Shown here: positions 5,173-60,440 of the stretch, piece by piece
How the letters are laid out: every line of letters begins with the position of its first letter
Position numbering within the stretch: position 1 is the stretch's first letter
Assembly: GCA_965219415.1 (NCBI GenBank)
Contig: CBDCNP010000002.1
Coordinates: forward strand, 4,192,001 to 4,256,000
DNA: 64,000 nt
DNA from: Candidatus Marinacidobacterales bacterium
GTDB lineage: Bacteria > Acidobacteriota > Vicinamibacteria > Marinacidobacterales > DATDRI01
Reading direction: 5' to 3'
Notes under the pieces: model-generated
Told to the model about the DNA's origin: nothing
The model's database searches: none
Seen by the model: the letters and a program-made list of their open reading frames with translations, nothing else
Program-made: the position numbers and the translations under genes

Positions 5173-5247
5173 CGTCCTGTGCCAAAACTCGGCCCTTTTG
5201 AAATAGTGAAGTGACCCCGCTTTCGTGGACAGGTTAAGAGTTAGGGA

Positions 5248-6099
5248 TCAAGCGTCGCGATAGTACCTCCTTTCGAATTGGATAGGCGAGCAATAGTCGA
5301 TGGCGGAGTGTCGTCGTCGCGGGTTGTACCAGCCTTCGATGAAATCGAAGGTCGCCATGCGCGCCTCAGCGTGGTAGCGAAACGACCGGCGCTCGATCAG
5401 CTCGCACTCGAGCGTCGCGAAGAAGCTCTCGCACATCGCATTGTCGTAACAGTCCCCGACCGAACCCATCGACGGTCGCACCCCGGCCTCCCGGCATCGC
5501 TGGCCGAACGCTAGTGACGTGTACTGCGTGCCCTGGTCCGAGTGATGGATGACGTCGCCGGGCTTGCGTTGGAACAGCGCCATGTCGAGGGCGCTCAAGA
5601 CGAGCGACGTCCGCAGGTGGGTAGCCATTGCCCATCCGACGATGCGTCGGCTGAAGGCGTCCAGCACGACGGCGAGGAACAAGAAGCCCGACCACGTGGG
5701 CACGTAGGTGATATCGGCGACCCACAGGCGGTCGGGCCGGTCCACCTCGAAATTCCTGTCGACGAGATCGGGGGCGGGACGGGCGTCGTCACAGCGAATC
5801 GTAGTGTGCGCCCTCTTGCGCCGGTGAACACCTTGAATGCCAGCCTCGCGCATCAGCCGCGCTACACGCTTGCGTGAGACGTGGAGCTCGTGTGTCTCTC
5901 GTAGCTCGTGGAGGATCCTCGGCGCGCCGTACGTGCTCCGCGACGCGGTGTGAATCGCCCGGATCTTCTCAAGCAACTCCGCATCCGACACCGCGCGGGC
6001 CGACGGGGCACGCTCAAGCCACGCATAGTAGCCGCTGGCGGAGACGTCCAGCAGTCGGCACATCGTGGCAACCGGTAGTGAATCCTGGTTCGCCCTCAC
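5248..6099 (-). CDS. IS3 OrfB transposase
   Basis: WVADITY, HHSDQGTQY and DNAMCESFF DDE motifs. Confidence 0.93.
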   Translation of the reverse strand: MRANQDSLPVATMCRLLDVSASGYYAWLERAPSARAVSDAELLEKIRAIHTASRSTYGAPRILHELRETHELHVSRKRVARLMREAGIQGVHRRKRAHTTIRCDDARPAPDLVDRNFEVDRPDRLWVADITYVPTWSGFLFLAVVLDAFSRRIVGWAMATHLRTSLVLSALDMALFQRKPGDVIHHSDQGTQYTSLAFGQRCREAGVRPSMGSVGDCYDNAMCESFFATLECELIERRSFRYHAEARMATFDFIEGWYNPRRRHSAIDYCSPIQFERRYYRDA

Positions 6100-6410
6100 G
6101 AATCGGAAGGCTTCGGTGGTACCGACTCGGTCTCCCGAGCGAACCAGGCCGCGGCTTTTGAGAGGATCTCCCGCTCCAACCGTAGTTGACGGTTCTCCCG
6201 TCGCAGGCGGCGGAGCTCCGCACGCTCCTCACTCGTCAGACCGTCCTGCCTGCGACCCTCGTCGAGATCCGCCTGGTTCACCCAGTTCCGGATCGTCTGG
6301 CCCGAGGGCTCAAACTCTCGCGCCAGCTCTTCGGAGCCGCGGCCAGCTCGCACCAGCTCTACCATTTGGCGCCGGAACTCGGCCGCGTATCTGTTTCCCT
6401 GCTTTGACAT
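6096..6410 (-). CDS. IS3 OrfA
   Basis: RYAAEFRRQMVEL HTH plus coiled coil; overlaps orfB at GTGA. Confidence 0.9.
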   Translation of the reverse strand: MSKQGNRYAAEFRRQMVELVRAGRGSEELAREFEPSGQTIRNWVNQADLDEGRRQDGLTSEERAELRRLRRENRQLRLEREILSKAAAWFARETESVPPKPSDS

Positions 6411-6662
6411 CGTGGACTCCTGTCTCCCAAAGGATTAGGTGTCCACGAAAGCGGGTCAAGTCCATAGGCCATAAATCAGCAACTTAGTGTCTGTGTTTGC
6501 GACCGGGCCAAGGGCCGTGGGCTTTACAATCGTCTTGGGCGGGCGGGTCGTCACCATGCAGATGACCACCTAGTCGAGAGCGAATATCGAAGCATGTTCC
6601 TGAAGCGGTTTCCACGCTACGCCGGTCGAGCCCGCCGAGGGGCTACCGTCGCCGGCGACCAT

Positions 6663-7733
6663 CTACGCGGCACGGCAGTAGTAGTTGAGAATGCCCCCAA
6701 GTCGCTCTCGCGACACGATGGGGCCAGCGCTATTCGCGCTTGCCGGCAGAGGAGTGAGGAGCTCGTTGCCGAGACCTTGGTGGTTCCGTTCGGTGTGATA
6801 GTGCACGACGTATTCGCTTACCGCTGTGCGCAGGTGTCGCTCACTGAGAGGTACGAAGCGGTCGAGACACTCTCGACGTATGGAGAGAACGAATCTTTCC
6901 GCGTATGCGTTCAGATTCGGACTATTGGCGGGAAGGCGCAGGGGCTTCACGCCTGAATCTCTCAACAGCCCACGTACCGCCTCGGTGAATAGCGGGTCCC
7001 GGTCGTGGATGAGGTATCGCTTGCCAAGGAGGAAACCATCCCACAGGTCAGTGAGGTTTCTTGCCACCTGCTTCATCCACTCCCCGTTGGGGTCCGACGT
7101 TATCCCACCGATGCACACACAGCGAGTGGCGATATCGATGACAAACAGGACATGGTAGCGGACGAGCCCGAACGGGTTCACAACCTCGACGGTGAACAGG
7201 TCTGTCGCAGCGATGGCGCCCCAATGAGCCTTGATGAAGGTGCTCCACGACATGCTCTTGCCCCGCTCCGGGGCAGGTGCGATACCGTGGTCGGCGAGGA
7301 TCCTCTTGATGGTGTTGCGTCCGAGTTCATGTCCTAGGTTCTTGAGTGCGCCTCGCAGGCGCGTATATCCCCACGTCGGGTTCTCCTGCGCCACGCGCAC
7401 AATGAGCTCACGGATGTCCTTCGCCGTCGGAGGTCGGCCTGGGCTCCGGTTCTTGCTGCCATCGTACTTGGCTGCGATGAGGCAGCGGTACCAACGCACA
7501 AGCGTAGCGGGTGTGGCAACGGACGCAATCTGGGCCAGCGCCTCGCGGCCCAAAGCCTGGGCCTTGACCGCGAGCCTGCGCCGCTCGTCGTCCGAGAGAC
7601 TGAGACGCTTGCCCCGAAGCCCGGCTCGGAGCACACGGTTCTCCTCTTGCTGGTAGTCGATCACACCCTGCTGCTGGCGGTTGACCCAGCCAGCTAGAAC
7701 GAGCAGTAGGAATTGCACGTGGTACGTCATCAT
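6663..7733 (-). CDS. Integrase-core (rve) DDE transposase
   Basis: [46 protein letters not shown]. Confidence 0.9.
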
Positions 7734-7873
7734 GGATCTGAAGATAACACCCTCGGGCCAGACGATTGTAAAGCCTACGGCCCTTGGTCCGGTCGCAAAC
7801 ACAGACACTAAGCTGCTGATTTATGGCCTATTTCAAAAGGGCCGAGTTTTAGCACAGGACGGGGTGCTTCCGC

Positions 7874-8039
7874 GGTGCTTGCGCTGTTTACTGTTGGTGA
7901 TTGTGTACGCATCCCTTTGCAAAAGAGGCGCTTACGCTCTATTTAGCGCGCAGCGAAGGTCACGAGCTCTATTTTAGCTGTAATTAATGCACCGTAAAAT
8001 CTTAGCGTCATCTCACCAACACTTAATGGCGGAAGCACC
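7874..8039 (+). repeat. MITE-A, 166 bp, IS1-like ends
   Basis: ~30-bp imperfect TIR GGTGCTTGCGCTGTTTACTGTTGGTGA / GGTGCTTCCGCCATTAAGTGTTGGTGA; 7 full copies in the window. Confidence 0.9.
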
Positions 8040-8285
8040 CCGTTGCTATTACAACTTCGTCCGACCGCACGGAGCTCTGAAGTTCGGACGTGAGATCCGA
8101 ACTCCGGCTATGCAGGCCGGTCTGACCACGCGACGGCTCACCTTTCGAGACATCTTCTTTGCGACGACGATTCCTTTGTGGTTGCGGATCGAGGTTTTCC
8201 TGCTCACTGGGGCGCGCAACCCGGTCTCTTCCACACCTGTACCACTGCCCGCAGCCGCGTAGCAACACTTGATGGCGGAAGCATC
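8040..8285 (+). pseudogene. IS1-like transposase 3' fragment with its terminus
   Basis: YYNFVRPH...RTPAMQAGL followed by CAACACTTGATGGCGGAAGCA; also at 28055-28188 and 48528-49038. Confidence 0.7.
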
Positions 8286-8514: not shown

Positions 8515-8814
8515 ATGGCGAAAAAACCCATGACCAAAACCCAAATCGTGGCCCAGATGTCGGAAGCGATGCAGGTTCCGAAAAAGCAGGCCGCGGCATG
8601 GTTCAAGTCGATTGCCGATCTCGCGGCGAAGGAGACGAAGCGGACGGGCCAGTTCATCATTCCCGGAATTGGAAAACTCGTGAAGGCGCAACGAAAGGCG
8701 CGCAAGGGACACAACCCCCGGACCGGCGAACAGATTCGAATCCCGAAAAAGACGGTAGTCAAGTTTCGAGTAGCGAAAGCTTGCCTGGACGCCGTCGTCT
8801 CACCGAAGAAGTAG
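8515..8814 (+). CDS. HU/IHF-family DNA-binding protein
   Basis: MTKTQIV...IPGIGKL...RKARKGHNPRTGEQIRIP...VKFR. Confidence 0.92.
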   Translation: MAKKPMTKTQIVAQMSEAMQVPKKQAAAWFKSIADLAAKETKRTGQFIIPGIGKLVKAQRKARKGHNPRTGEQIRIPKKTVVKFRVAKACLDAVVSPKK

Positions 8815-9721: not shown

Positions 9722-9887
9722 GGTGCTTGCGCTGTTTGCTGTTGGTGATGTGTACGTATCCCATTTCAAAAGAAGCGCTTACGCTCCATTTAGCGCGCAG
9801 CGAAGGCCGCAGGCGCTATTTGCGATGTAATTTAATGCACTGTAAAGTTTTAGCGTCATCTCACCAACACTTAATGGCGGAAGCACC
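9722..9887 (+). repeat. MITE-A copy, preceded by a type-B terminus at 9646
   Basis: 166-bp match to 7874-8039. Confidence 0.9.
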
Positions 9888-24470: not shown

Positions 24471-26405
24471 TGTCCATCATCATTATTAATCCGGGACTGG
24501 ACTCTAGGGCCCGGACCGCCCTCGAGCACATGCTGGAGAGCGTGGTCAGCGCGCGAGGGAAGGTGCTGAGGACGAACTTCTCGGCGACCAGCCGAGTAAT
24601 AACGCGAGCGACCAAGCTGACTCAGGCTGCCTCTCGCCACTCGTATCGATGGTGCAGTCCACCGACTCGCGGCAGTGCGACTACGTTCGCCGTAGGAGAC
24701 GGTCGGTGCGTGACCGCTCTCAAGCTCGGTGTATCCTTGTGCAGCCCCAAGTGGCAACGGTCCTCATGATAGTAGCTGATGTAAGCTCGCACGAGCCGGA
24801 TGAGATGACATGCGCCGAGAACCACGACGTGCTCAAGGAGCTCGCGACGGCAGCTGCCGACCCCGTCCTGTGCCAAAACTCGGCCCTCTTGAAATAGCCG
24901 ATAAATCAGCAGCTTAGCGTCTGTGTTTTGCGACGGTGCCAAGGGCTGTGGGCTTTACAATCGTCTGGCCCGAGGGCGTCCTGTGCCAAAACTCAGCCCT
25001 TTTGAAATAGGCCATAAATCAGCAGCTTAGTGTCTGTGTTTGCGACCGGGCCGTGGGCCGTGGGCTTTACAATCGTCTGGTCCGAGGGTGTTATCTTCAG
25101 CTCGTCTGGTCAAAATACTCGAACGCCCAGCGGGTCAGCAGTTTGCACCTTTCCGAGGGCTGCTTGAATCTGGCATCGCGGTCGGATACGTATTTCTTCC
25201 GGGTGCGCAGTTCGTTACCTGCAGCTCGCCCCGGCAGCCGATTTGAGCCAGCCGTGCGCACCCCCGGTGGGCCTGTCGCCCGCTACCCGCAGCCCAGGGG
25301 TCGGAAGCCAGTCCTGCGGCGCGAAATACCCTGGATTCTGCGCGGATTCCAAGGGCGTCTAAGCTGCTGATTTGCGGTCTATTTCAAAAGGGCCGAGTTT
25401 TGGCACAGGAGGTGCTTCCGTCATTAAGTGTTGGTGAGATGACGCTAAGACCCTACGGTGCATTAAATTACAGCCAAATTAGCGTTCGTGACCTTCGCTG
25501 CGAGCTAAATGGAGCGTAAGCGCCTCTTTTGCAAAGGGATGCGTACACATCACCAACAGTAAACGGCGCAAGCACCCCCGCTGCGCCAGACGGTTCCCCC
25601 GCTGATGCTCAGGGTGCCGACTATAGTTAATGATGAAGGACACGCAACCGATCCACCGATGGGTGCTTCCGCAGTCAAGTGTTGGCGGCCGCTGCGTAAC
25701 CTGTTCGCGTGCTAGAGTTTTGCCTGATTTCGATAGACGCAGTTCTTTCGTCGATGCCGGCTGGGCCGAGTTTTGGCACAGGACGGGAAGACCATGCTGA
25801 ACTACATCTCAGGGTCCGTGGATGAGGAGTCGCTCCTGCGCAACGGGTATCTTGTGGCCGAGAATCGGGTTCTTCGAAATCAGAACCAGGTCGTCCTCCA
25901 ACTGCCGGATCCGTTCCCGCAACAGTTCATTGTCCATCACCAGGCCGGTTACGGCCGATTGCAGTCTCTTCTGCTCTTCGTCGACGACATCGACCGTACG
26001 GCTCTTCAACCCGTTCTCGCCTCCCACGAGAAACGCCTCGCGCCAATGCGTCAACGTCGCGCCCGTGACACCGTACTTCCGGCTCGTCGTCTCCAGTTCA
26101 GCTCCACGCAACAGCTCCAATACCAAGCTCACCTTGCGCCGCGCCGACCACCGGCCCTTGACGCCGCGCAGTGAATCTGAGATCACTTCGGTCACCCTGC
26201 GCAACCACAGATTTCCCCTTCATTCCTCTGGACATATCGTCATCCTCCTCTGATGTAGTTTCTCAAATCACTGTCCAAAGAAATCGTGGGGCGGGGGAGG
26301 AACTTCGCAATGAGCTTCTTCCACAACTCACGTCGGAGGAATCAGCTGCTTAACCGAGCTCGGGGAACCATGCAGAGATTTGACAGGAAAATTAGGACTT
26401 GACCG
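24471..26405. mobile_element. ~1.9-kb stack of termini and IS fragments
   Basis: In order: E right end plus transposase 3' part (24471-24863), tandem B TIRs (24864, 24977), J end (25103), B end, MITE-A (25411-25576), A-B hybrid (25662-25785), rve N-terminal piece, IS3-like orfA piece, IS256 end. Confidence 0.85.
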
Positions 26406-34566: not shown

Positions 34567-34668
34567 CGTCCTGTGCCAAAACTCGGCCCTTTTGAAAGAC
34601 CATGGCTGTAATTTAATGCGCCGTAAAGTCTTAGCGTCATTTTACCAACACTTAATGGCGGAAGCACC
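34567..34668. repeat. 102-bp B-A hybrid mini-element; second copy 58175-58276
   Basis: CGTCCTGTGCC...AATGGCGGAAGCACC. Confidence 0.85.
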
Positions 34669-35515
34669 CCTTGATGAGTAACAACCCAGGGCGGATCGGC
34701 TTCTGTCCCGCAGTGAAGCCGACGAGACAGATCCGTCCGAGCGGTTGGATCACCGACATGAGCGCCGCCTCGAAGAGCTCTCCCTGCACCATGTCGATCA
34801 CGACGTCGACGCCCTCCGAGTGGCCGAGTTCGGTGGCCGCTTGCTTCACCTCCGTCTTGAACGTGCGGTAACTGTCGCCGTCTCGACCGTAGCAGAGCAC
34901 TCGGTCGGCGCCAGCGGCGGTCGCAAACTCTTTCTTGTCCGGGACGCTGACGCCAGCGATCACTGATGCACCCATCGCCTTCGCCAGCTCCACCGCCGCC
35001 ATCCCCACCCCCCCGGACGCTCCATCGACCAACACCAGATCTCCTGCCGTGACCTCACCGAGAATCTTCAAGGAGTAGTAGGCTGGAAAGAAGTTTCGCC
35101 CCAGATTCGCACACGCAGACAGGGGGACCCCGGTCGGCGCCGGCCAGACCGACGACGCCGGCGCAGCGGCGACCTCGGCCAGACCGCCCACGCTCATTTG
35201 CGCGAAGACCTCGTCGCCCACCGCCAACCCGTCGACACCATCGCCTAGCTCCAGGACCATGCCCGACACGTCCATCCCTGGCACATACGGAAGCCGTGGC
35301 CGCTGCTGGTAAAGGCCCTGCGCCTGCAGGGCATCCGGATACTGCACACCGGCATACCGAGTTTGAACCAACACCTGCCCCGGTTCGCAGGCCGGTGGCG
35401 GAATCTCGTCCAACGAGAGGGCCTCTCGGAGCGAAGCCGGAGTCGCCAGGGGTCGCCCCTGGTCGTCGAGACCGACGTAGCGGTGACAGCGGACGGCTTT
35501 CATCAAGCTACTCAT
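34669..35515 (-). pseudogene. NADPH:quinone oxidoreductase (MDR family), 3' truncated
   Basis: [29 protein letters not shown]; cut at LLLIK by an A terminus. Confidence 0.85.
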
Positions 35516-39096: not shown

Positions 39097-39517
39097 GCCG
39101 AGTTTTGGCACAGGACGGGGTAACGGAGTCGTCGAAGGTTGCTGCTGCCTGAACTTTTCTACACACCTATTGACAAGAGCTCGGCCAAGTCTACTTACCT
39201 ACTTGTATGTAGTATGTTTCGGACCACAAGTACCATCCGTCATTTGCCATTGCGTGAAGAATAATTTTGCATTGGCCTTGCCTTGTGGCAATGAATCGGT
39301 ATGTGTAGCTTGTCTCGTTTCCAATTTGTCGCAGTTTCCCGCTAGGACACCAACCCTCCCATCGTGGCGTGCCTTTTGACGACCAAGGCTCTTCATTTGC
39401 CGTAACGATTTGGAGCTGGATTTCTTGGCCTGTACTTTCCTGTCCTGGCATTGGTGTCTGCACTACGGGCTCGCCGCTCCGAGTTACCCCTATCTCGTGG
39501 TATTTCCATCGCGGTGC

Positions 39518-41696: not shown

Positions 41697-42981
41697 TGTG
41701 CATCGTCAAAACTGCTCCGCCCACGAAATCAAGACTTACGCTCCGCTTGAATTCCGGGCCGAAGACGGCGAAACTCCGCCGCTATGCTCAACGTTGTTGT
41801 CTTCCTCGTCTCACTTGGCGTCCGTGCCATTCGGGCGATGTGTCGGCGCCGCGCCGACCTGGTGTTGGAGAACGTCGCTTTGCGGCAGCAAGTGACGGCG
41901 CTGAAGAAAGAGCGCCCACGCCCACCGCTCGACGACACGGAACGGGCTTTCTGGGTTGCTCTTCGAGGTTCGTGGCCCGTGTGGGCGAGCCGCCTGCTCA
42001 TCGTCCACGCGGACACCGTGGCCCGTTGGCATCGCGACCGATTCCGACGGTACTGGGCAAATATCTCGCAGCGCCGCCATCCCGGTCGGCCTCGGATTGA
42101 TGCCGAGATTCGTCGCCTCGTCCGCACGATGGCGCAAGACGGCTGGGGGGCGCCACGCATCCATGCTGAGCTCACCAAGCTCGGTTTCATCATCTCCGAG
42201 ATCACGGTGTCGCGATACCTGCCGCGGCGTCCCGCGGAGCCCGACCAGCTGAAACGATGGATGGCTTTCTTGCGCAACCATAAAGACGATATCGCCGCCA
42301 TGGATCTGTTCACCGTGCCCACCGCGTCGCTCCGGCTGCTGTACGGCTTCTTCGTCATCGAGCACGGTCGCCGGCACATCGTTCACTTCAACGCCACGTT
42401 CCACCCGACGTCTGCTTGGGTTATTCAGCAACTACGCGAGGCGTTTCCCTACGACACCGCTCCGAGATATCTCATCTTCGATCGCGACTTCATCTTTAGC
42501 GCTGCGGTCATCGAGTTCATCAAGGCAACGGGCACAAAACCCGTTCGCACTTCGTTTCGCAGCCCATGGCAAAACGGAACCGCGGAGCGGTGGGTCGGCA
42601 GCTGCCGTCGCGAGCTCCTTGAGCACGTCGTGGTTCTCGGTGCATGTCATCTCATCCGGCTCGTGCGAGCTTACATCAGCTACTATCATGAGGACCGTTG
42701 CCACTTGGGGCTGAACAAGGACACACCGAGCTTGAGAACGGTCACGCACCGACCGTCTCCTACGGCGAAAGTAGTCGCACTGCCGCGAGTCGGTGGACTG
42801 CACCATCGATACGAGTGGCGAGAGGCAGCCTGAGTCAGCTTGGTCGCTCGCGTTACTCGGCTGGTCGCCGAGAAGTTCGTTCTCAGCACCTTCCCTCGCG
42901 CGCTGACCACGCTCTCCAGCATGTGCTCGAGGGCGGTCCGGGCCCTAGAGTCCAGTCCCGGATTAATAATGATGATGGACA
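41697..42981 (+). mobile_element. rve/DDE element, type E, full length
   Basis: Ends TGTGCATCGTCAAAACT / TGTCCATCATCATTATT; second full copy 51926-53211; flanks unrelated. Confidence 0.9.
41784..42833 (+). CDS. Integrase-core (rve) DDE transposase
   Basis: [36 protein letters not shown]. Confidence 0.9.
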   Translation: MLNVVVFLVSLGVRAIRAMCRRRADLVLENVALRQQVTALKKERPRPPLDDTERAFWVALRGSWPVWASRLLIVHADTVARWHRDRFRRYWANISQRRHPGRPRIDAEIRRLVRTMAQDGWGAPRIHAELTKLGFIISEITVSRYLPRRPAEPDQLKRWMAFLRNHKDDIAAMDLFTVPTASLRLLYGFFVIEHGRRHIVHFNATFHPTSAWVIQQLREAFPYDTAPRYLIFDRDFIFSAAVIEFIKATGTKPVRTSFRSPWQNGTAERWVGSCRRELLEHVVVLGACHLIRLVRAYISYYHEDRCHLGLNKDTPSLRTVTHRPSPTAKVVALPRVGGLHHRYEWREAA

Positions 42982-43462: not shown

Positions 43463-44360
43463 GTAGGGTCGAGGGCTGGCGCGGTGCTCCGTAGGCGCGG
43501 CCTATCTGTTTCTCCCCGTTTCCTGTGGGAGTGCCTCACTAGCCGCACCGTAAGTCCGTTTCCAGCCCCCGCCACATCGCACGCAGCGTACGGCTTTCCC
43601 GCACTACGCGCTCCTGCACACTTCCCGCGAAGGGTTATGTGACCTATCGAGCCGGGGTGTCTTTCGGCGAATCTACGAGATATCGAACTCGGTAATCGAA
43701 CAGTCCGACAGTCGCGTACATCCATCGCCTACTCCATCGCTTCCAGCCGAAACCTTGGCGCAAGAAGCGCCAAGACTTCTCGGCCTTCGCCTTGACGTAT
43801 ATCCTTCGTCTCAGCTCCTGCAGAGTGATGGGTGATTTTGTCATCTCACCCCTGCCTCGCTTGTTGACGAAGGAGTTGTGTGCAGCAGGGCCCCTTTGCT
43901 CCACGGGCGTTGCCCCGTTTCAACGCTACTACGGACCCAGCCGCCACCGTCTCGTCTTCGACCGTTTTCCCGGGGCCTCCGGTTATGCGGTCTACCTTGC
44001 TCCGTCGATTTCTCGACGGGACGAGGACGGCTTCTCCAGTTGCTTGGCATGTCCTTGTCACCGTGCTGTCCCTACCACCCCGCCACAGGGATGTGCCTCA
44101 TCAGATAGTCTGACAACACATCCTGTTGCCTTCGTCCGACACGAGAAAACTCGGCCTCTGGGGTCTATTTTTTTGTCGGGGCCACCTATGGGTTCACTTG
44201 TGTTACGGCCCGGTGACTCGCTCACCATCCTCAAGATGGCTTTGTCAGTCAGCTTCATCCGTCTCGTTTCCTCCACGAACGTGACTCAAGCTACGGGGCG
44301 CTAACTTTTTCCCCGGTGGGACTCTCTCCCACTGAACATGCCAGCCTTCGCTGGACGCAC
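43463..44360 (-). ncRNA. Group II intron with internally deleted RT ORF
   Basis: 5' GTGCG, 3' ...CGACCCTAC; domain V/VI-like GAGCGCGTAGTGCGGGAAA...; RT remnant MTKSPITLQELRRRIYVKAK fused to GFGWKRW. Confidence 0.88.
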
Positions 44361-44439
44361 TCGTGTCCAAAAATACAAACGAACCCTCGAAGACTCTATC
44401 CACCAAGGGCACAGTTTTGGCACAGGACGCGTGGCAGGG

Positions 44440-45999
44440 TTAACTGGCCCTGCCCACTGTGCTTGCGCGCAGCCCCTTCCAGGTGCTGTAGCACATGGCG
44501 ACCAGCACCAGCGCGAAGGGGAGGCCGGTGGCGAGGGTGGCTGCCTGTGCAGCCACGAGGCCGCCGCCGAGCAGCAGCGCGATGGCGATGATCCCCTCGA
44601 GAACGCACCAGAACACTCGCTGGGCGACTGGCGCATCCAGCTTGCCGCCGGCGGTGATGGTGTCGATGACCAGCGATCCAGAGTCGGAGGATGTGACGAA
44701 GAACACCACAATCAGCACGATGCCGAGGAACGACGTGATGTTCGCAAGCGGCAGCGTCTCCAGCATCGTAAACAGGGCTATCTCCGGCTGCTGCGCCTGC
44801 ACCGCCGCGATCACCTCGGGATGACCGTGGTCAACGTACTGCGATACCGCAGTCCCGCCGAAGGCGTTCATCCAGATCGCGGCAACCAGCGTCGGGATGA
44901 TCAGCATGCAGGCAGTCAGCTCGCGCACCGTCCGGCCGCGCGAGACCCGCGCGATAAACAAACCGACGAACGGGGACCATGAGATCCACCAGGCCCAGAA
45001 AAAGACAGTCCAGCCGTGCATGAAGTCGAGATCCTCTCGGCCCACCCAGTTGCTGAGGGGGCCGATCGCCGCGAGATACTGGCCGAGGCTGGTCACGGTG
45101 CCGGTGACAATGTCGAGCGTCGGTCCGACCGTCAGCATGAACGCCAGCAGTAGCAGGGCGAGCAGCAGGTTGGCCTCGCTCAGCCGCTTGACCCCCTTCT
45201 CCATCCCGCTGACAACCGACGCCAGCGCCATGCTGGTAATGCCGACGATCAGCAGCACCTGGGTGGTGGTGGTGTTGGTCGCCGGCGCGCCAAACAGGTG
45301 GGCCAGCCCCGCCGCCGCCTGTTGGGCACCCAGGCCGAGCGACGTGGCCAGCCCAAAGAGCGTGGCGAAGACGGCGAGGGTGTCGATGCCGTGGCCGAAC
45401 CGGCCCCACACCGCATCCCCCATGAGCGGATAGAACGCCGACCGTAGTGTCATCGGCAGGCCGAGGTTGTACGATGCGAAGGCAATCCCCAGCGCCACCA
45501 CTGCGTACATGGCCCACCCATGGATTCCCCAGTGGTAGATGGCGCTGGCCAAGCCGAGGTGGGCTGCCGCCGTGTCGGTCGCCTTGAGACCGAGCGGCGG
45601 TTGCAGGAAGTGCTCCACCGGCTCCGACACCCCGAAGAACATCAGGCCGATGCCTATCCCGGCAGCGAACAGCATGGCGAACCAAGCAGAGCGGGAGTAG
45701 TCCGGCCGGGCATCCGCGCCGCCCAGGCGCACGCGGCCGAGCGGCGTTACCACCAACATCAGGCAGAAGAGCACGAAGAGGTTGCCCGCGCTCATGAACA
45801 CCCAGTCGAAGGTCGACATGAGCCATGCGCGCAGCGCCCCGAAGGCGGCCGCCGCACCGGCCTGGAACACTAGCACGCCTGAAACGAACGCGATGATGGT
45901 CAGACTGGAGACGACGAAGACCGGATTGTGGATGTCGAGGCCGAGGAGTTGGACGTTGTCCTGACCCAGCTTGTAGTCGATCTTCGAGACCTCAGCCAT
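44440..45999 (-). CDS. BCCT-family transporter
   Basis: WFAMLFAAGIGIGLMF, HWGIHGW, WAWWISWSPFVG, TSSDS. Confidence 0.93.
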   Translation of the reverse strand: MAEVSKIDYKLGQDNVQLLGLDIHNPVFVVSSLTIIAFVSGVLVFQAGAAAAFGALRAWLMSTFDWVFMSAGNLFVLFCLMLVVTPLGRVRLGGADARPDYSRSAWFAMLFAAGIGIGLMFFGVSEPVEHFLQPPLGLKATDTAAAHLGLASAIYHWGIHGWAMYAVVALGIAFASYNLGLPMTLRSAFYPLMGDAVWGRFGHGIDTLAVFATLFGLATSLGLGAQQAAAGLAHLFGAPATNTTTTQVLLIVGITSMALASVVSGMEKGVKRLSEANLLLALLLLAFMLTVGPTLDIVTGTVTSLGQYLAAIGPLSNWVGREDLDFMHGWTVFFWAWWISWSPFVGLFIARVSRGRTVRELTACMLIIPTLVAAIWMNAFGGTAVSQYVDHGHPEVIAAVQAQQPEIALFTMLETLPLANITSFLGIVLIVVFFVTSSDSGSLVIDTITAGGKLDAPVAQRVFWCVLEGIIAIALLLGGGLVAAQAATLATGLPFALVLVAMCYSTWKGLRASTVGRAS

Positions 46000-46759
46000 A
46001 TGGTGTTGCAATAGCGTTTTACCATGCGGAGGCTTTTGTTTCTACCCTCGACCGGGCCCTTCGTGAATAGTCCGGGCTAGCCGGCGCGGAACCGCAGGTG
46101 CTTGCTCCGTTTACTGTTGCCGGCTCGTCCACGTCGTCGTGCGAGGACAGCTGTGCTCCGCAATAAGTCTATCCAGTGTCGATTGCTCGGTTTAGACCTG
46201 CCAAGTTCGGACGCTTCTGGCCGGTTTTATTTTTTGCGGATCACAACCCCGGTGGTGCGGACATCGAGCCACATTTCCGCAGTCGGATGAGAGCGCGAAC
46301 AAATGACGAAATCATGCGGGCATGGTGCCGGCAGACCGGAGACTAATCAAGTTCGCGCGCGCGGATGAATAAATAGAAGGCACAACTCGCTCTTGCTCGA
46401 CAAAACAAACCTTTCGACGTAAGCGTTCAGATTCGGCGAACGGTACGAGCTTCTGGGCGATCTTATTTATTGCAGATCACACCCATTAGACTGCACTTTA
46501 CCGGGCAAAAGAGCGAATGTTCGGTGATGCCGAAGGATACAGGTCTCCCTCCGGAGCGATGAATGTGGTCTCGCCCGATTGTAGTCGTCACGCCATTCAG
46601 TCAAGAGTCGGCGAGATGTTCCTCGTGGGAGACGGCTGTCAGGCCGTGCGCCTTGACGAACCGGCACAGCACCGCGTCGACTCGGAAAGACCAAGTTGCC
46701 CGTGGCCGAGGTCAGGGCTCCGCCGATGGCCAAGATTGACCGGATGCGAGATCGGGGTG

Positions 46760-47465
46760 ACCAGCCGTCCGGTGGACGATGATGCGGATGTCTGCGCTTA
46801 CCCTTACCGACCAGAAATTTTTGTCCTTGGACTTATCCAGCTTGTGGAAGCTCAGTCCAGGATTGGCGGAATTCAATTGGAGGTCAAACGCTGTGGTTTT
46901 GACCGCCTTCTGCTCGTCCCCGTTGAGTCGCACGAGGCTGTCAGTGAAGGTATCGGGAGATGAGAAAATCCATCCAATTCTTGCTCTCAGGTCGAAGGCA
47001 GGCGCTCTGGCCAGTAGTAGTGAACGGGCGCCAGCCACCTCGACGACGGGTTCTGTTCACTGGTCGGGAGCTTGGCGAACAGGTCCTCCGGCCAAACCCG
47101 ACGGAATCCTTCACGTGCCGCAACAGCCGCGATCAGCGCATCCCTTCGGTTGTCCTTAGGATCGTCAAGTGTCACATCTGACTGAATCGCACTGAACTTC
47201 TGCTTCCAGAAACCACGACCCAACGCCAGCAAAACGGCCTTTGGATGGGCCTCGGTTAATCCCATAGAAGGGAATCGGTCACGTAACAAGTGAGCGACGA
47301 GGACACCCTGGACAAGAACGCTTCCCCAAAGACTGTTCACCGCTAGGATGCTCCGACGCGCCGCGGGATACCGGGCAAGAAGCCGGCGGTCTGCGTCACG
47401 GAGGCCAGACGAACCCGACGACCACCAAAGCGGAGCATCGATTCCCGCAGCCTGAGGGACCTCCC
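46760..47465 (-). pseudogene. Fragment carrying the 3' part of a DUF429-like nuclease and the 5' part of a UvrD-type helicase
   Basis: AGIDAPL...TEAHPK...RDALIAA; DTFTDSLVRL...KTTAFDLQ...FWSVRV. Confidence 0.55.
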
Positions 47466-47644
47466 CGTCCTGTGCCAAAACTCAGCCCTTTTGAAATAGA
47501 CCATAAATCAGCAACTTAGAGTCTGTGTTTGCGGCCGTGCCCAGGACCGAGCGCGAACAAACGACGAAATCATGCAGGCATAGTCCCGACAGATCGGAGA
47601 CCGATCAGGTTCGGGGCGCGCGGATGAATAAATAGAAAGCACAG

Positions 47645-47735
47645 GGTACGACACTCCGTCCTGGCGCGCAACGGCAGCCGTGGATCATCGGACAACAGCC
47701 AGAGAAACGTGCAGGTGTCGAGCAGGAGCGTCACG
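47645..47735 (-). pseudogene. PIN/VapC 5' fragment
   Basis: LLLDTCTFLWLLSDDPRL; cut by an F terminus. Confidence 0.6.
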
Positions 47736-47974
47736 GCGACACCCCTGACCATCGCTCCGGGATGGGCCACGGGGCTCCGACCCGCTGTTCGATTGCCTGC
47801 TGGCAGCGGGTGCCGTGGCCGCCGAGCCACCGTGTGACCCGCGACGCTTTCTTATCAGTCCGCTGGTACTTTGCGCCGACCATCAATGAGCCGTCCAGCG
47901 GATAGACATCACCCGTGTGTTGCACCAACACACCGGTATCGCACAACCGCTCAACGACGCCCGAAAGGATCTCC

Positions 47975-48121
47975 CGTCCTGTGCCAAAACTCGGCCCTTT
48001 AGAAATAGACCACAAATCAGCAGCTTAGACGCCCTTGGAATCCGCGCAGAATCCAGGGTATTTCGCGCCGCAGGGCTGACTTCCGACCCATGGGCTGGCG
48101 GATGAATAAATAGAAGGCACA
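47975..48121 (-). repeat. MITE-B copy
   Basis: 147-bp inverted match. Confidence 0.9.
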
Positions 48122-48361
48122 ACCAGAGGAACAAGGGGAAAAAGCTCATTGACGGTTTACCCGTCGTGTCCAAAAACACAAACGAACTCAAGATCTGTGT
48201 CGCAAGCTAGACGGAACGGATGCTCTGGACGGCCGAGTTTTGGCAAAGGATGCCGTCAAGCGTACTCGCTAATCAGATCAAAAATATCCAGAAGAAACGT
48301 AATCTGACGACGGTCGAGCTTTTCACGCTGGGCGAGCGGGACGGCCCTGAACCATTCGTCT

Positions 48362-48527
48362 GGTGCTTCCGCCATTAAGTGTTGGTGAGATGACGCTAAG
48401 ACTTTACGGTGCATTAAGTTACAGCCAAAATAGCGCTCGTGACCTTCGCTGCGCGCTAAATAGAGCGTAAGCGACTCTTTTGCAACGGGATACGTCCACA
48501 TCATCAACAGTAAACAGCGCAAGCACC
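48362..48527 (-). repeat. MITE-A copy
   Basis: 166-bp inverted match. Confidence 0.9.
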
Positions 48528-49038
48528 CCAGAAGGTCATCCGTCGCTTCTTTGGGCCAGCGTGCCTCTACGGCCAGGTCCTCAAAACGCGCAGGAACGAT
48601 CGCATCATCAAGGTCGAACGGAGAGCGCTGCACGGAGCCGCGTGGCGATTTGATGACGCGCTCAATAACTCCGAGGACTCCTCGACATTGAACACGTCGT
48701 TCATCGAGCGGTTGAATCTGACCATCCGGCAAAGCTCGGCATACCTTTCGAGACGAACGCTTTCCCACGCTCGCTCGACGGAGAAGCTCGATGAGCACAT
48801 GGAATTGCTCCGTTGCTATTACAACTTCGTCCGACCGCACGGAGCTCTGAAGTTCGGACGTGAGATCCGAACTCCGGCTATGCAAGCCGGTCTCACCACG
48901 CGACGGCTCACCTTTCGAGACATCTTCTTGGCGACGACGATTCCTTTGTGGTCGCGGATCGAGGTTTTCCTGCTCACTGGGGTGCGCAACCCGGTCTCTT
49001 CCGCACCTGTACCACTGCCCCGCAGCCGCGTAGCAACA
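48528..49038 (+). pseudogene. IS1-like transposase 3' half
   Basis: NTSFIERLNLTIRQ...RRTLSHAR...YYNFVRPH. Confidence 0.75.
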
Positions 49039-49139
49039 TATCTGGACTCCTCTAGTCAAGCCCCTTTCTTTCTAGTCACGCCCCTTTCTTAATAAATCTT
49101 CCATCGAAGCTGCGCATCCATCGCGTCGTGACGAGTGGG

Positions 49140-49310
49140 TCAGACTGCAAACGTATCTTCGGCCTCAGTGAGGAGCGTCTTGGGTGCTCCGGGCCATGAT
49201 GGAAAATCCGCGCGCGAGGAGCCAATCACTTTGAACGACCTCTTAGGGCCAGTGTTGCTATTGGCTTGACCCCGCGCCGGTCCGACCGGTACGCCATCAG
49301 TTGGATGGGT
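49140..49310 (-). ncRNA. Putative seek/bridge RNA of the IS1111 element (boundaries approximate)
   Basis: Segments matching the target (49251-49260, 49227-49231) and the donor junction (49196-49204, 49152-49158). Confidence 0.65.
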
Positions 49311-49368
49311 ATCGTCGCAGCCTCTTTTGGAAGGGAAAAAGGAAAACACGAAAGTGGAGCCTCTAAAT

Positions 49369-50400
49369 CTAAGCGGCCACCGGCGACTGGAATTCACTCT
49401 CGCGGGTGGAGACGGCCCAGACGATCCGGGCGAGTTTGTTGGCGACAGCAATCACGGCCTTGTTGTGTCCCCGCGAGCGGTGGACCTTCCGAGCCCAGGC
49501 GCGGAGCTTGTCGGGCGGGCTCTTGCTGACGTTCGCCGCGCGGAGCACGGCGCGCCCGCCCTGGGTGAGGAGCATACGGAGGTAGGAGTCGCCACGCTTG
49601 GTGATGCGTCCGAGGCGGCGAATGTCGCCACTGGAGTTTTCCTTGGGAACTAGGCCGAGGTAGCTCGAGAAGCGGCGCCCCGATGGGAAGCGGCGAAGAT
49701 CGCCGACGAAGCCCACGATGGCGGTCGCGGCCAGAAGTCCGATGCCGGGAATGGCGAGAAGTCGTTGGACTTCAGGAAGCTGCTTGGTGAGCGCCTTGAG
49801 CTCGTGCTCGATGCTAGCGCACTTGTCCTTGAGTTCTCGAATCTCGGAGCAGGCATCACGGAGATGCGAACGGAGCACGTCGGGCAAATCAGAATCAGCG
49901 TCTTCGACGAGTTCGAAGAGGGCGGGCACGACGAAGTGAGCGCCCTTTGGGATGATGAATCCGAGTTCGCGCAGGAGCCCGCGTACGGCATTGATGCGTG
50001 CGGTCCGTGTGGAGAGCCATCCTGAGCGCAGGCGATGGAGCGCAGCGAGGGTGTGCTGGTGCACGGACTTGATGGGTACGGGAAGAAGCTCCTCGTTCCT
50101 GTAGGCCTCGAGCAACGCCTTCGTGTCGGCGCGGTCGTTCTTGCTCCCGCGTCGATACGGCCTCACGAGGTGAGGTGGGAGCAGGACGACGTCGTGTCCC
50201 AACCTTCGGAACGTCCTTGCCCAGAAGTGAGCCGAGCCGCAGGCTTCGAGAAGCACGGTGGCAGCGCTCTGTTTGGCAAAGAACGACACCAATTTGGGTC
50301 GACTCACACGGAGTTGCTTGGACACCTTCCCCGCTTCTCCCGAGATGGCAATCTCGAAGACGTTCTTTGCAAGATCCACAGCGATTGTCGTATCTTTCAT
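49369..50400 (-). CDS. IS110-family DEDD transposase
   Basis: AVDLAKNVF, LEAC, KNDRAD, IPGIG, YLGLVP..SSG, AVANKLARI. Confidence 0.95.
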   Translation of the reverse strand: MKDTTIAVDLAKNVFEIAISGEAGKVSKQLRVSRPKLVSFFAKQSAATVLLEACGSAHFWARTFRRLGHDVVLLPPHLVRPYRRGSKNDRADTKALLEAYRNEELLPVPIKSVHQHTLAALHRLRSGWLSTRTARINAVRGLLRELGFIIPKGAHFVVPALFELVEDADSDLPDVLRSHLRDACSEIRELKDKCASIEHELKALTKQLPEVQRLLAIPGIGLLAATAIVGFVGDLRRFPSGRRFSSYLGLVPKENSSGDIRRLGRITKRGDSYLRMLLTQGGRAVLRAANVSKSPPDKLRAWARKVHRSRGHNKAVIAVANKLARIVWAVSTRESEFQSPVAA

Positions 50401-50536
50401 TTGGACTCCTCCTTTTCGATGCGTATTCGACTGACTTTGGCACATCGATGCCGTCTATGTCAGTGGAGGAGTCCATTCCATCACTTGATGGCGGAAGCAC
50501 CGCCTCGCGTCCGCGCGGCAGATGCCGGGACCGCAC

Positions 50537-51853
50537 CTAGTAGTGGGAGTCCGCCGTGAGAATCGCCTCAAGCAACACAGCCGTACCGTTCGCCACGTCT
50601 TTCGGCTCAGTGAACTCCTCGGGAGAATGACTGATGCCGTTTACGCTGGGTACGAAGATCATCCCAACCGGAGCAAGAAGAGCGATACTCTGGGCATCGT
50701 GTCCTGCCCCGCTCGACATCGAGAGCGTTGATAGTTCGAGCCTTGCCGCAGCCTCTTGGACGATCTCTTGGAGCGTTTGATCAGTCGGCGTAGCGCGGCT
50801 CACGTAGTACCGGTCGAATGAGATCGTAGTGGCGTTGCGCGCTGCGACGGTTCGACTCTCCCGTTCGATCTCACCAAAGACGCTCTCGATCTTGGCCATC
50901 TCGAGGTCGCGTATCTCGAGGCTGAGCTCGACTCGACCGGACACGACGTTCGGGGCTCCGGGATGAACCTCGAGTTTCCCCACCGTGCCTACCTGACGAC
51001 CGGGCGTCTCGGTAACGACAGCGTTGACGAGCTCGATGAAGCGCCCCGCAGTCAACATTGCGTCTCGTCGTTGATTCATCGGAGTCGTTCCTGCGTGGTT
51101 GGCTAAGCCTTCGACAGTGACGTTCCAGCGGATAATCCCCACGATTCCTTCGACAACGCCGATGTCGATCCCCCGCTGATGGAGGGTCGCACCTTGCTCG
51201 ATGTGGAGTTCCAGGTAGCAGGCGATCGATCCTGGCTTCCGCTGTGCCTCGACGATCCGAGTGGGATCCCCGCCGATATAGGCGATGCCCTCCCCGATCG
51301 TCTTCTCGGTATGCGTAGGAAGCGCTAGCTCTCTGTCTTCGACTTCGCCCGAGAGAGCACGGCTTCCAGTCTTGCCGTTCTCTTCGTTCTGAAACAGGAT
51401 CACCTCAAGGGGATGCCGCGTAAGCCAACCAGCGTCGGACATCGTGTGAACGACCTCGACCGCGGCCATCGACCCGACCTGACCATCGTAGTTTCCACCG
51501 TGAGGTACCGAGTCAATGTGCGAGCCGAAGAGGATTGGGGGCAGGCTCGGCTCCTGCCCGTCACGACGACCGACCACGTTTCCAGCGACGTCGATGCTGA
51601 CGTCGAGCCCAGCCTCCTCCATGGCCGAGATGGCATAGGCTCGTCCCTCACAATCGGCTTCGCTGTAGGCGACTCGGCTGATACCGTCCTCGGCGGTCCG
51701 GCCGAAGCGTGACAGCTCGCTGAGCCGGCGGTTCACGCGATCGCCGTTGATGTTGAGGCGAAGGCGTTCTCTGGGATGTTGGACCGGACGCGGAGAGACG
51801 GGAAGCGAAAGCGCGCAAGCTCCGAGACTCAGTAAGAACTCCCGACGCTCCAT
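50537..51853 (-). CDS. M20 Zn-dependent hydrolase (allantoate amidohydrolase/carbamoylase family), Tat-like leader
   Basis: GSHIDSV..GGNYDG, ELHIEQG, NHAGTTPM, SGAGHDAQ, GISHSPEE. Confidence 0.92.
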   Translation of the reverse strand: MERREFLLSLGACALSLPVSPRPVQHPRERLRLNINGDRVNRRLSELSRFGRTAEDGISRVAYSEADCEGRAYAISAMEEAGLDVSIDVAGNVVGRRDGQEPSLPPILFGSHIDSVPHGGNYDGQVGSMAAVEVVHTMSDAGWLTRHPLEVILFQNEENGKTGSRALSGEVEDRELALPTHTEKTIGEGIAYIGGDPTRIVEAQRKPGSIACYLELHIEQGATLHQRGIDIGVVEGIVGIIRWNVTVEGLANHAGTTPMNQRRDAMLTAGRFIELVNAVVTETPGRQVGTVGKLEVHPGAPNVVSGRVELSLEIRDLEMAKIESVFGEIERESRTVAARNATTISFDRYYVSRATPTDQTLQEIVQEAAARLELSTLSMSSGAGHDAQSIALLAPVGMIFVPSVNGISHSPEEFTEPKDVANGTAVLLEAILTADSHY

Positions 51854-51925
51854 AGGCGGGAGTGTAGCCGAAACTTGCGCGCTGTGGTCGCTGCGAGCTG
51901 TCCCCGTCCTGTGCCAAAACTCGGC

Positions 51926-53211
51926 TGTCCATCATCATTATTAATCCGGGACCGGACTCTAGGGCCCGGGCCGCCCTCGAGCACATGCTGGAGAGCGTGG
52001 TCAGCGCGCGAGGGAAGGTGCTGAGGACGAACTTCTCGGCGACCAGCCGAGTAACGCGAGCGACCAAGCTGACTCAGGCTGCCTCTCGCCACTCGTATCG
52101 ATGGTGCAGTCCACCGACTCGCGGCAGTGCGACGACTTTCGCCGTAGGAGACGGTCGGTGCGTGACCGTTCTCAAGCTCGGTGTGTCCTTGTTCAGTCCC
52201 AAGTGGCAACGGTCCTCATGATAGTAGCTGATGTAAGCTCGCACGAGCCGGATGAGATGACATGCACCGAGAACCACGACGTGCTCAAGGAGCTCGCGAC
52301 GGCAGCTGCCGATCCACCGCTCCGCGGTTCCGTTTTGCCATGGGCTGCGAAACGAAGTGCAAACGGGTTTTGTGCCCGTTGCCTTGATGAACTCGATGAC
52401 CGCAGCGTTAAAGATGAAGTCGCGATCGAAGATGAGATATCTCGGAGCGGTGTCGTAGGGAAACGCCTCGCGTAGTTGCTGAATAACCCAAGCAGACGTC
52501 GGGTGGAACGTGGCGTTGAAGTGAACGATGTGCCGACGACCGTGCTCGATGACGAAGAAACCGTACAGCAGCCGGAGCGACGCGGTGGGCACAGTGAACA
52601 GATCCATGGCGGCGATATCGTCTTTATGGTTGCGCAAGAAAGCCATCCATCGTTTCAGCTGGTCGGGCCCCGCGGGACGCCGCGGCAGGTATCGCGACAC
52701 CGTGCTCTCGGAGATGATGAAACCGAGCTTGGTGAGCTCAGCATGGATGCGTGGCGCCCCCCAGCCGTCTTGCGCCATCGTGCGGACGAGGCGACGAATC
52801 TCGGCATCAATCCGAGGCCGACCGGGATGGCAGCGCTGCGAGATCTTTGCCCAGTACCGTCGGAATCGGTCGCGATGCCAACGGGCTACGGTGTCCGCGT
52901 GGACGATGAGCAGGCGGCTCGCCCACACGGGCCACGAACCTCGAAGGGCAACCCAGAAAGCCCGTTCCGTGTCGTCGAGCGGTGGGCGTGGGCGCTCTTT
53001 CTTCAGCGCCGTCACTTGCTGCCGCAAAGCGACGTTCTCCAACACCAGGTCGGCGCGGCGCCGACACATCGCCCGAATGGCACGGACGCCAAGTGAGACG
53101 AGGAAGACAACAACGTTGAGCATAGCGGCGGAGTTTCGCCGTCTTCGGCCCGGAATTCAAGCGGAGCGTAAGTCCTTGATTTCGTGGGCGGAGCAGTTTT
53201 GACGATGCACA
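51926..53211 (-). mobile_element. rve element type E, second copy
   Basis: Near-identical to 41697-42981; right end joined inside a B terminus. Confidence 0.9.
52074..53123 (-). CDS. Integrase-core (rve) DDE transposase
   Basis: 349 aa, near-identical to 41784-42833. Confidence 0.9.
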
Positions 53212-53852
53212 AGCCAGCCTTTCTCTTGTCCGCGCCCGTGAAGGCACCTCTCTCGTGGCCAAAGAGTTCGGATTCCACGAGTTCAGCTGGTATAGCGCCG
53301 CAGTTGACCGCTTTGAAGGGTTGATCCCGCCGTGGACTGGCTCTGTAGATCGACCGGGCAAGCAACTCTTTCCCTGTGCCAGACTCGCCCTCTAAAAGGA
53401 TCGGCACTGATCGCGGAGCAACACGCCGCGCCTTGGCGATCACGCGAGCCATGGCTCGACTGCGGTGAATGATGTCAGCGAATTCGGGAGCCTCGGGAGG
53501 AAGCCCGGCGGCCAACTTCTCGAGGCGTTCGTCCGAACCTCGGAGGAGATCCGGTATGAACTCGGCCGACATGTCGAAGGGCACGGATGCCGTCCGTACG
53601 CCATGCTTAAGCGAGGACTCGATCAACTCACCTGGGAAGCGCGTCTTGGCCAGGATAATCCAGACCGCCGTCATGGCGGGAGTCCCTGGGCTCAGATGAA
53701 AGGTCAGCTCGGAATCCTTGCCGTAACGCACGAGTGACTCGGTCACGACCCGAACCGCTACTTCGTATATCTCGCCGAATTGCGTGGGACCAGACAACGA
53801 CTTGTGGCATACGGCCACTTGTGCCTTGGTCTGAGGCCGGAGCCATTCTAGG

Positions 53853-55252: not shown

Positions 55253-55400
55253 CATTCTAGGAACGGCATCACCTCTTTTTCGGGATAATCGCTTATCAGC
55301 ACGGCAGCGTCGTAGGAGCGCGTGCTGAGCGCTTGGGCGATCGGCCCTTTACCGACAAGCGGCTCTTCCTGGGGCGCTCGAAGATCAGTTTGGCCGACCC

Positions 55401-55547
55401 CGTCCTGTGCCAAAACTCGGCCCTCTTGAAATAGACCACAAATCAGCAGCTTAGACGCCCTTGGAATCCGCGCAGAATCCAGGGTATTTCGCGCCGCAGG
55501 GCTGACTTCCGACCCATGGGCTGGCGGATGAATAAATAGAAGGCACA
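55401..55547 (-). repeat. MITE-B copy
   Basis: 147-bp match. Confidence 0.9.
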
Positions 55548-55608
55548 GTTGACTGGTTGTACGCCTGGGGGTAATCTCAGTTCATAAGAGAGACAGGGTG
55601 ACCGGAAG

Positions 55609-56385: not shown

Positions 56386-56391
56386 GCCTAG

Positions 56392-56880
56392 ATGGACTAC
56401 CGGTATTGGGATTCGGTTGTGTTTCTCGGATGGCTGAAAAAAGAACCGGATAAGGTTCCCTATTGTAAGCCAGTGCTTGACGCTGCTGAGCGCGGCGATG
56501 TCACAGTGATCACATCAGCACTCACAATCGCAGAGGTTTTATGGTTGAAGGGAAATCCCAAGATTGATGTGCAGGCACGTCAGATTGAGACATTCTTTCG
56601 TAATGACTGGATCGTAATCCGAGAGGTGGACCGCTTCCTTGCGGAGAGAGCGAGGGACTTGGTGTGGTCGATGGATGTGAAACCGAAAGATGCGATCCAC
56701 GTGGCCACAGCGGTGAACCAAGACGTCCGAATTGATCAACTTGACACGTTTGATGAGGGAATGATTAAACTCTCTGGATCGGTTGGGAACCCTCCTCTGG
56801 CCATCGGTTGGCCAAACTTACCTCAAAGGCTCCCATTTGAGGCAAAAGATGAAGACCCGTCAGACACAAGTGGAAATTGA
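56392..56880 (+). CDS. PIN-domain (VapC-like) protein
   Basis: WDSVVF, TSALTIAEV, KDAIHVATA, TFD. Confidence 0.85.
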   Translation: MDYRYWDSVVFLGWLKKEPDKVPYCKPVLDAAERGDVTVITSALTIAEVLWLKGNPKIDVQARQIETFFRNDWIVIREVDRFLAERARDLVWSMDVKPKDAIHVATAVNQDVRIDQLDTFDEGMIKLSGSVGNPPLAIGWPNLPQRLPFEAKDEDPSDTSGN

Positions 56881-56889
56881 AGCTGACGA

Positions 56890-58567: not shown

Positions 58568-58597
58568 TGTGGGTCGGTCTCTTTGAAGCCGTTCAGT

Positions 58598-60367: not shown

Positions 60368-60440
60368 ATTCGACTTTCCCCGGAATCAGGCGGTTTGCGC
60401 GGCCTAATCTTATCCTGTGCCTTCTATTTATTCATCCGCG

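Follow-up and report, generated by a model that had tools for sequence, protein, structure and literature searches.

An insertion sequence with conserved CGT tips and no detectable target-site duplication, from an uncurated branch of the IS3/IS481 transposases

The DNA analyzed here is a stretch of 64,000 nucleotides (the window) from the genome of a Candidatus Marinacidobacterales bacterium (assembly GCA_965219415.1, contig CBDCNP010000002.1, forward-strand positions 4,192,001 to 4,256,000), and our subject is a mobile element at window positions 5173–7861. The element is an insertion sequence (IS) whose transposase belongs to the IS3/IS481 group (rve, DDE), in a branch that is large and uncurated, 'uncurated' meaning that no IS-family name came from Pfam, NCBIfam or the annotation of homologues. 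The superfamily is known; the branch has no curated name and is characterized by family-wide CGT tips, very long repeats, many MITEs (miniature transposable elements with inverted repeats) and no detectable target-site duplication (TSD). Taken as a whole, the reading that we favor, and consider quite probable, is that of a ~1.43-kb IS from this branch with conserved CGT tips and no TSD, inserted by a blunt or 2-bp cut in a palindrome. The insertion chemistry may be blunt, may involve a 2-bp CG, or may be one-ended.

Positions 5173–7861 hold two elements, one of the IS3 family nested in one of the rve type. The IS3-family element (1258 bp) interrupts the outer element at base 34, and removing it along with one TAG copy leaves an outer element of 1428 bp. 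The inverted repeats of the latter are ~102 bp long, with element bases 1–102 pairing with 7861–7760 at 96.1%, and both arms start CGTCCTGTGCC. The left repeat is separated by the IS3 insertion into an outer 34 bp with the tip CGTCCTGTGCCAAAAC... (5173–5206) and an inner part, element bases 35–102 (6468–6535), seen in an inverted-repeat search that aligned 1327–1398 to 6535–6464. The right repeat, 102 bp in length, lies at 7760–7861 and terminates ...GGCACAGGACG. Although the left repeat of this copy is disrupted, the transposase gene is still open: it occupies 6663–7733 on the minus strand and encodes 356 aa from an ATG, the frame being open to an upstream GTG at 7808 (381 aa). A first-pass annotation of this DNA had proposed an element of ~1.43 kb after removal of the nested IS3, with one intact DDE open reading frame (ORF) and near-perfect inverted repeats of ~100 bp that start CGTCC, and our analysis bears out each of these points. 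A scan of the outer element found no sigma-70-like promoter and no terminator.

The transposase matches Pfam rve_3 as well as HTH_32 and HTH_21, which are N-terminal helix-turn-helix domains. Its catalytic residues are spaced DD(35)E, as in rve enzymes, and D178, D244/D246 and E279 are invariant across 12 aligned homologues (64–87% identity). The best NCBIfam model is IS481 (NF033577; 97.6 bits, E = 9e-28, residues 79–353), for which the cut-off is 224 bits. IS3 is second, at 79.2 bits and below its cut-off of 160, and the IS630 model matches the N-terminal part alone (49.4 bits, residues 80–184). A comparison with profile models of IS3, IS481 and TnsB had been suggested beforehand; the protein proved closest to IS481 and then to IS3, in both cases below cut-off, and no TnsB model was among the matches listed. 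With the IS481 family the element shares a single unframeshifted rve DD(35)E transposase of ~350 aa with an N-terminal helix-turn-helix, and a similar element size. It differs from that family in its sub-threshold score, in ends that read CGT...ACG rather than TGT...ACA (a TGTG lies at bases 6–9) and in its ~102-bp repeats. The rve core is also shared with the IS3 family, but here there is one ORF with no orfA/orfB frameshift, and neither TG...CA outer ends nor a 3–5-bp TSD is present.

The first-pass annotation had also likened the ends, loosely, to those of Tn7/TnsB, and an end system of the Tn7/TnsB or Mu type was therefore weighed. Apart from a faint resemblance of the TGTG...CAAAA in the tip to such ends, the evidence points the other way. 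The element has a single gene, no TnsB, Mu or Tn7 family is among the Pfam and NCBIfam matches of the transposase, and a profile search of solved structures returned Sleeping Beauty as the sole match (E = 0.0028), with no TnsB, Tn7 or Mu. Moreover, no repeat family was found inside the inverted repeats, and there is no 5-bp TSD. The likeness thus did not stand up, and we regard a system of this type as exceedingly improbable. An AlphaFold model of the transposase was too poor for a structure search (mean pLDDT, the predicted local distance difference test, of 51.9) and was not used.

Relatives of the transposase are numerous. Homologues made up 7998 of 8000 scored candidates, so there are at least 7998, and those that carry names are called 'transposase InsO family protein', 'putative transposase', 'transposase' or 'hypothetical protein', none with an IS-family name. 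In species-representative genomes, the relatives at 81–97% are Candidatus Marinacidobacterales metagenome-assembled genomes (MAGs), going by record titles, while those at 54–66% fall in Myxococcota, Gammaproteobacteria, Bryobacterales, Vicinamibacterales, Planctomycetota, Verrucomicrobiota and others. In a plasmid collection, 98 records match the transposase, all at <60% identity, and the features listed for the plasmid relatives are 'integrase core domain-containing protein'. The clade has members in Acidobacteriota, Myxococcota, Gammaproteobacteria, Planctomycetota, Verrucomicrobiota and Streptomyces. Literature searches returned nothing on 'Marinacidobacterales', no paper with any of four tip strings and nothing relevant on MITEs combined with IS481.

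To see how the ends behave in these relatives, we took the best inverted-repeat pair around the gene at 38 divergent loci, a quick method. At 22 of the 38, the repeat pair starts (C)CGT and has the form CGT-NN-TGTSCC-AAAAC; 14 had no credible repeat pair by this method, and the flanks of 1 were too short. In two loci (L086 and L105) the two ends differ at the first positions, and not as a direct repeat would. Copy comparison resolved a further element in a Bryobacteraceae MAG, where three copies, 98–99% identical, have the ends CGTTGTGTCC... and ...GGACGGTACG. A Streptomyces plasmid relative (~40% identity) has the arms CCTGTAGTACTCCCGAAACTCGG / CCCGTACTACTTCCGAAACTCAG, with tips that read CCTGTAGTAC / CCCGTACTAC. 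The CGT tip is thus conserved family-wide, across several phyla and in Streptomyces, and the unusual CG start flagged at the outset is no local oddity. Tip bases 4–5 usually agree between both arms of one element, which fits a tip carried by the element. The repeat length of 102 bp is particular to the focal subclade, most relatives having 17–30 bp.

One could argue that the active end is a canonical TG...CA lying 5 nt further in (TGTGCC...GGCACA), with the outer CGTCC a conserved extension. The alignment of relatives as CGTNN-TGTSCC would accord with this, as would locus L089, one of the 38, in which the repeats open with TGTCTC itself and the bases ahead of it are unrelated. In addition, hybrid MITEs described below terminate exactly at ...GGCACA, and another IS in the window, with a transposase 32% identical, ends TGTG...GACA. 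Against this stand two observations: the five outer bases are present at every one of ~500 places, so they move with the element, and the ...GGCACA ends belong to another element family. We therefore deem an inner end very unlikely.

The tip is abundant in the genome, which consists of 3 contigs and 8.05 Mb. Counting a 20-nt tip core with up to 3 mismatches, we found 530 occurrences in the genome, 29 of them in the window (both ends of the focal element counted), a recurrence far above chance; the figure for the window agrees with the roughly 28 occurrences first reported. The three bases before the core are C in 514, G in 511 and T in 517 of the 530 ends. Matches to the IS end extend for ≥91 bp in 82 ends, 61–90 bp in 105, 50–60 bp in 141, 27–36 bp in 66 and 20–26 bp in 33. 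One truncated end, at 63046–63125 (plus strand), starts TGTCC, as the first-pass annotation had stated; sequence comparison shows that its flank plus TGTCC recurs at two other places in the genome, so this is one inherited change and not an independent variant. By BLAST, contig C3 carries 411 ends, C2 carries 31 and C1 a single one. Their distribution is uneven: that on C1 is alone in 2.07 Mb, the first 0.6 Mb of C3 has none, and beyond 4.1 Mb on C3 most bins hold 7–27 ends per 100 kb.

Full-length copies number 12, the present one and 11 others that are 93.8–97.6% identical, and an ORF of ≥350 aa is kept in 6 of these 11. One of them begins within the window (63802–64000, plus strand) and runs out of it (contig C3, 4255802–4257230; 93.8% identical). 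Calling the focal copy a master element therefore captures part of the picture: it looks autonomous and has its tip in common with high-copy MITE-like families, but it is one of 12 full copies, and half a dozen others retain a long ORF.

Most of the ends belong to these short MITE-like families, which have only the first 21–84 bp of the tip in common with the element. In a symmetric family of ~317 bp both ends are of the CGT type, and there are 16 paired copies of 300–345 bp, 94–100% identical; the two copies tested (L135 and L137) lie in flanks that are unique within the genome. In hybrid families, the CGT tip is joined to the end of another element. The largest of them, of ~152 bp, has 69 distinct-flank copies and the other end ...AGAAGGCACA, which is also that of a ~183-bp family (36 distinct-flank copies); a ~105-bp family (20 distinct-flank copies) has the other end ...GGCGGAAGCACC. 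Examples in the window are a ~152-bp copy at 55401–55547 (plus strand; first 54 bp from the element tip) and a ~105-bp copy at 34567–34669 (plus strand; first 31 bp). An Rfam search with the 152-bp MITE gave no match. The genome thus contains both a coding element and short non-coding families that carry its terminal sequence, as expected of an autonomous IS and its MITEs. The transposase would recognize roughly the first 20–30 bp of the tip, since non-autonomous families with only that tip reach tens to >100 copies.

Next, we looked for TSDs. The complete copies tested in this genome were 27, namely 11 of the IS and 16 of the 317-bp MITE, and 0/27 had a boundary direct repeat of ≥2 bp outside the CG itself. 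Likewise, we inspected 24 distinct full copies in eight other genomes by eye and saw no direct repeat; 20 of these copies have an ORF of ≥350 aa. An offset scan over repeat lengths of 2–8 bp showed no enriched direct repeat, whether in the element, in the three hybrid MITE families or in the related 1285-bp IS discussed below, and it recovered that of the nested IS3, used as a control (k = 4 in 17/34 copies, versus 0.7 expected). Long TSDs of ~15 or 25 bp were not found; a recurring 27-bp overlap represents two separate consensus-like sites within the IS. Members of the IS481 family make TSDs of 2–15 bp, mostly 6, and have TG..CA termini, according to PMC10045372. PMC11708052 reports an IS481 element moving with no TSD at a duplication junction.

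The control element lies at 5207–6464 on the minus strand (1258 bp, TG...CA ends), with TAG duplicated at 5204–5206 and 6465–6467. In the list of ORFs its orfA is at 6096–6410 and its orfB at 5248–6099, both on the minus strand, and orfB scores 340.1 bits with the IS3 model NF033516, above the curated cut-off of 160. It has 36 full copies in the genome, 97.6–100% identical, and by a plain count 28 of them keep a TSD, of 3 bp in 10 and 4 bp in 18. As IS3 TSDs survive in the same genome, the absence of a TSD is a property either of the CGT element or of the origin of its junctions. Six of the 36 IS3 copies sit within the first ~40 bp of a CGT-element repeat, 3 of them at the identical TAG site, and this repeat therefore appears to be a hot spot for IS3 insertion.

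These data also bear on the idea that insertion of the CGT element produces an ordinary TSD, a few bp long, which inter-copy recombination and adjacent deletions have erased in a repeat-saturated genome. The setting is suitable, as 64.7% of the window has further copies in the genome. The stretches of flank that paralogues share are short (median ~0.35 kb, range 56–2273 bp, n = 82), often with other IS ends at their borders, and the two flanks of one copy (c4) map to different loci. Furthermore, one 317-bp MITE copy (99% class) has on its left a flank that matches a same-genus genome at 91% identity, with homology ending 9 nt before the tip, and its right flank is unrelated, which places the MITE at a synteny break. 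Recombination and adjacent deletions are given as routes to TSD loss in PMC11708052. However, neither the 27 copies here nor the 24 from other genomes show a TSD, most IS3 copies alongside them do, and 317-bp MITEs that are 99–100% identical and have unique flanks are also without one. Nor is a consistent inverted flank consensus, such as that described next, expected from erosion. We conclude that erasure is quite unlikely.

The flanks themselves have a pattern. Across the 530 ends, the outward flank is C in 79% at –1, C in 89% at –2, C/T in 87% at –3, A in 67% at –4 and G in 45% at –5. Conservation here is lower than inside the repeat, so the flank is derived from the target, with a preference. 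The two flanks of a copy are inverted, AYCC|CG...CG|GGRT, and inverted CC...GG flanks are found in 17/27 complete copies. The only direct repeat at the element boundaries is CG...CG.

Given this, the CG could be a 2-bp duplication of a CpG in the middle of the palindrome AYCC-CG-GGRT, in which case the true ends would be 5'-TCCTGTG...CACAGGA-3'. IS30 makes a TSD of 2–3 bp at palindromic hot spots and would be an analog if this were so, although its transposase family is a different one and no IS30 model match is listed for ours. IS630/Tc1 elements, which duplicate a 2-bp TA (PMC10045372), would be another; their transposase family differs too. A CG duplication would explain the sole boundary repeat and the inversion of the flanks around CG, with CC and GG in 17/27, and it would fit the range of TSDs given for IS481 members in that paper. 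Two variant ends, AGTCC and CCTCC (cases 402 and 240), match the base at the same place in an element-free copy of the flank, which favors a target origin for the first two bases, and one composite joins ...GGAAGCACC straight to TCCTGTGCC with no CG. Other data are hard to reconcile with it: no more than about a third of the paralogous sites that lack the element have CG there, and the base that comes next is T, not G; the CCTCC copy shows CC at the left tip but CG at the right one; the ends of divergent loci L086 and L105 differ, not as a direct repeat; and CGT equals the repeat interior in conservation. On balance, target duplication of CG strikes us as rather unlikely. In the reading that we favor, the element itself would encode the tip 5'-CGT...ACG-3', which is conserved family-wide, and integration would proceed by a cut that is blunt or staggered by 2 bp, within a target that forms a short palindrome, not by the 3–6-bp stagger usual for IS3/IS481.

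Direct evidence on the cut would come from empty sites, for which we searched widely. Joining the flanks of the 12 full copies and comparing them with the genome gave no empty site; flank paralogues, scanned in the same search for empty sites, yielded none either, only structures in tandem or nested and an ambiguous composite (end83); and a search for interrupted repeats yielded 2 uninformative cases among 289. In 391 kb of same-genus genome compared with ours, no indel carries a CGT end and 18 junctions are one-sided. The flanks of four copies, searched in relatives, gave no clean empty site, and the junction of the Streptomyces relative is one-sided with no empty site. In contigs of 4 public runs across window positions 44001–64000, there are repeat-to-repeat joints only, and no empty site is bridged. 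Neither abutted ends nor relics of a circle junction were found.

Element-free copies of single flanks do exist: 85 distinct flanks have one elsewhere (82 without 3 self-hits), and a few of the 82 carry another transposon end at the exact junction. In these sites (n = 85) the first base after the junction is C in 39, A in 21, T in 17 and G in 8, followed by G in 49, T in 50 and C in 33. We considered the sites as excision footprints and rejected the idea, as palindromes occur in 4/82 versus 3.3 expected and the tip prefix plus GGAC/GACG in 2/35 versus 2.6.

Several of these results count against the reading that we favor. No search produced a clean pair of filled and empty sites, and the stagger is only inferred. 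The element-free sites have the form AYCC|NGT(C), which resembles flank plus tip and not the GGRT predicted from a palindrome, and the reciprocal junction is absent, with 0/584 opposite-facing pairs (mapping ≤40 bp apart) at an offset of –3 to +11. Given both observations, many junctions may be breakpoints, that is, rearrangements or one-ended events instead of simple insertions. The full IS copies differ from each other by 2–6% and are therefore older than the IS3 control. Finally, the transposase gene is intact and its activity is presumed from sequence, and a curated ISfinder entry for the element may exist.

A broader proposal accommodates part of this, and we advance it tentatively, as possible but doubtful: the uncurated CGT-tipped clade would integrate with no conventional TSD, either by a blunt or CpG-centered 2-bp cut in a palindrome or by one-ended exchange at sites that mimic AYCC|CGTC. 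If true, one-ended or TSD-less integration would explain both the missing TSDs and the ends at synteny breaks. Relative to the IS481 family, a repeat of ≥2 bp outside the CG is missing in the 27 copies, and the CG may be a 2-bp duplication.

The related IS mentioned above is 1285 bp long, with copies at window positions 41697–42981 and 51925–53211 and unequal TGT ends, TGTGCATCGTCAAAAC / TGTCCATCATCATTAT. Its 349-aa transposase is 32% identical to that of the CGT element and, like it, scores under both the IS3 and the IS481 cut-off; its 48 full copies (97.4–100% identical) likewise show no TSD above chance and have inverted flanks, GGC|...|GCC. It differs from the CGT element in its canonical TGT...ACA ends, in its short unequal repeats and in the lack of a CGT prefix. 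The single alignment earlier drawn through all the rve-type ends therefore holds in part, the ends that start TGT belonging to this different IS.

Other repeats adjoin or interrupt the CGT element. A MITE-like family of ~170 bp, with GGTGCTTSCGC...GGCGGAAGCACC ends and ~180 copies by coverage, is present at window positions 7872–8046, 9722–9887 and 34598–34669, and it often adjoins a CGT tip, a single base separating the two. At 24864–25103 the initial ~112 bp of the element end stand twice in direct tandem, an arrangement that recurs near position 5092629 of contig C3. Two different elements, with ends TGTGCCTTCTATTTATTC and TGTCCATCATCATTATTAATCC, are both inserted after tip base 21 (39097–39117 and 51905–51925). 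An ORF of 99 aa at 8515–8814 (plus strand), in a stretch present ~9 times in the genome, encodes what we take to be a protein resembling HU/IHF-type DNA-binding proteins. Short fragments in the repeat-rich part are 98–100% identical to intact stretches elsewhere in the assembly, which is rated 8.45% contaminated; two strains or replicons may be mixed.

The element is also found well outside this genome. It is 96–98% identical in two genomes of the same genus (G001, G002), in one of another genus (G003) and in six of another family (G014, G016, G018, G022, G026, G034), and 24 of 41 genomes have a match (G007 being counted solely within this tally), with only 1 of 16 in a third family. Unique flanks of our genome (G000) and the same-genus genomes are 66–91% identical, and because the element is so much better conserved, we infer recent horizontal spread. 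Parts of the window also occur in public runs, some labeled sponge metagenome, at small shares, and we make no claim about habitat.

If confirmed, these findings would add to the IS3/IS481 superfamily a distinct group with its own CGT end signature and an atypical integration geometry. Annotation pipelines leave thousands of such genes as 'integrase core domain' proteins, and the tip motif is a direct marker for annotating CGT elements and their MITEs. For the organism, confirmation would mean that one transposase lineage has seeded an 8-Mb genome with >500 ends and with several hybrid MITE families, and has spread nearly unchanged between genera.

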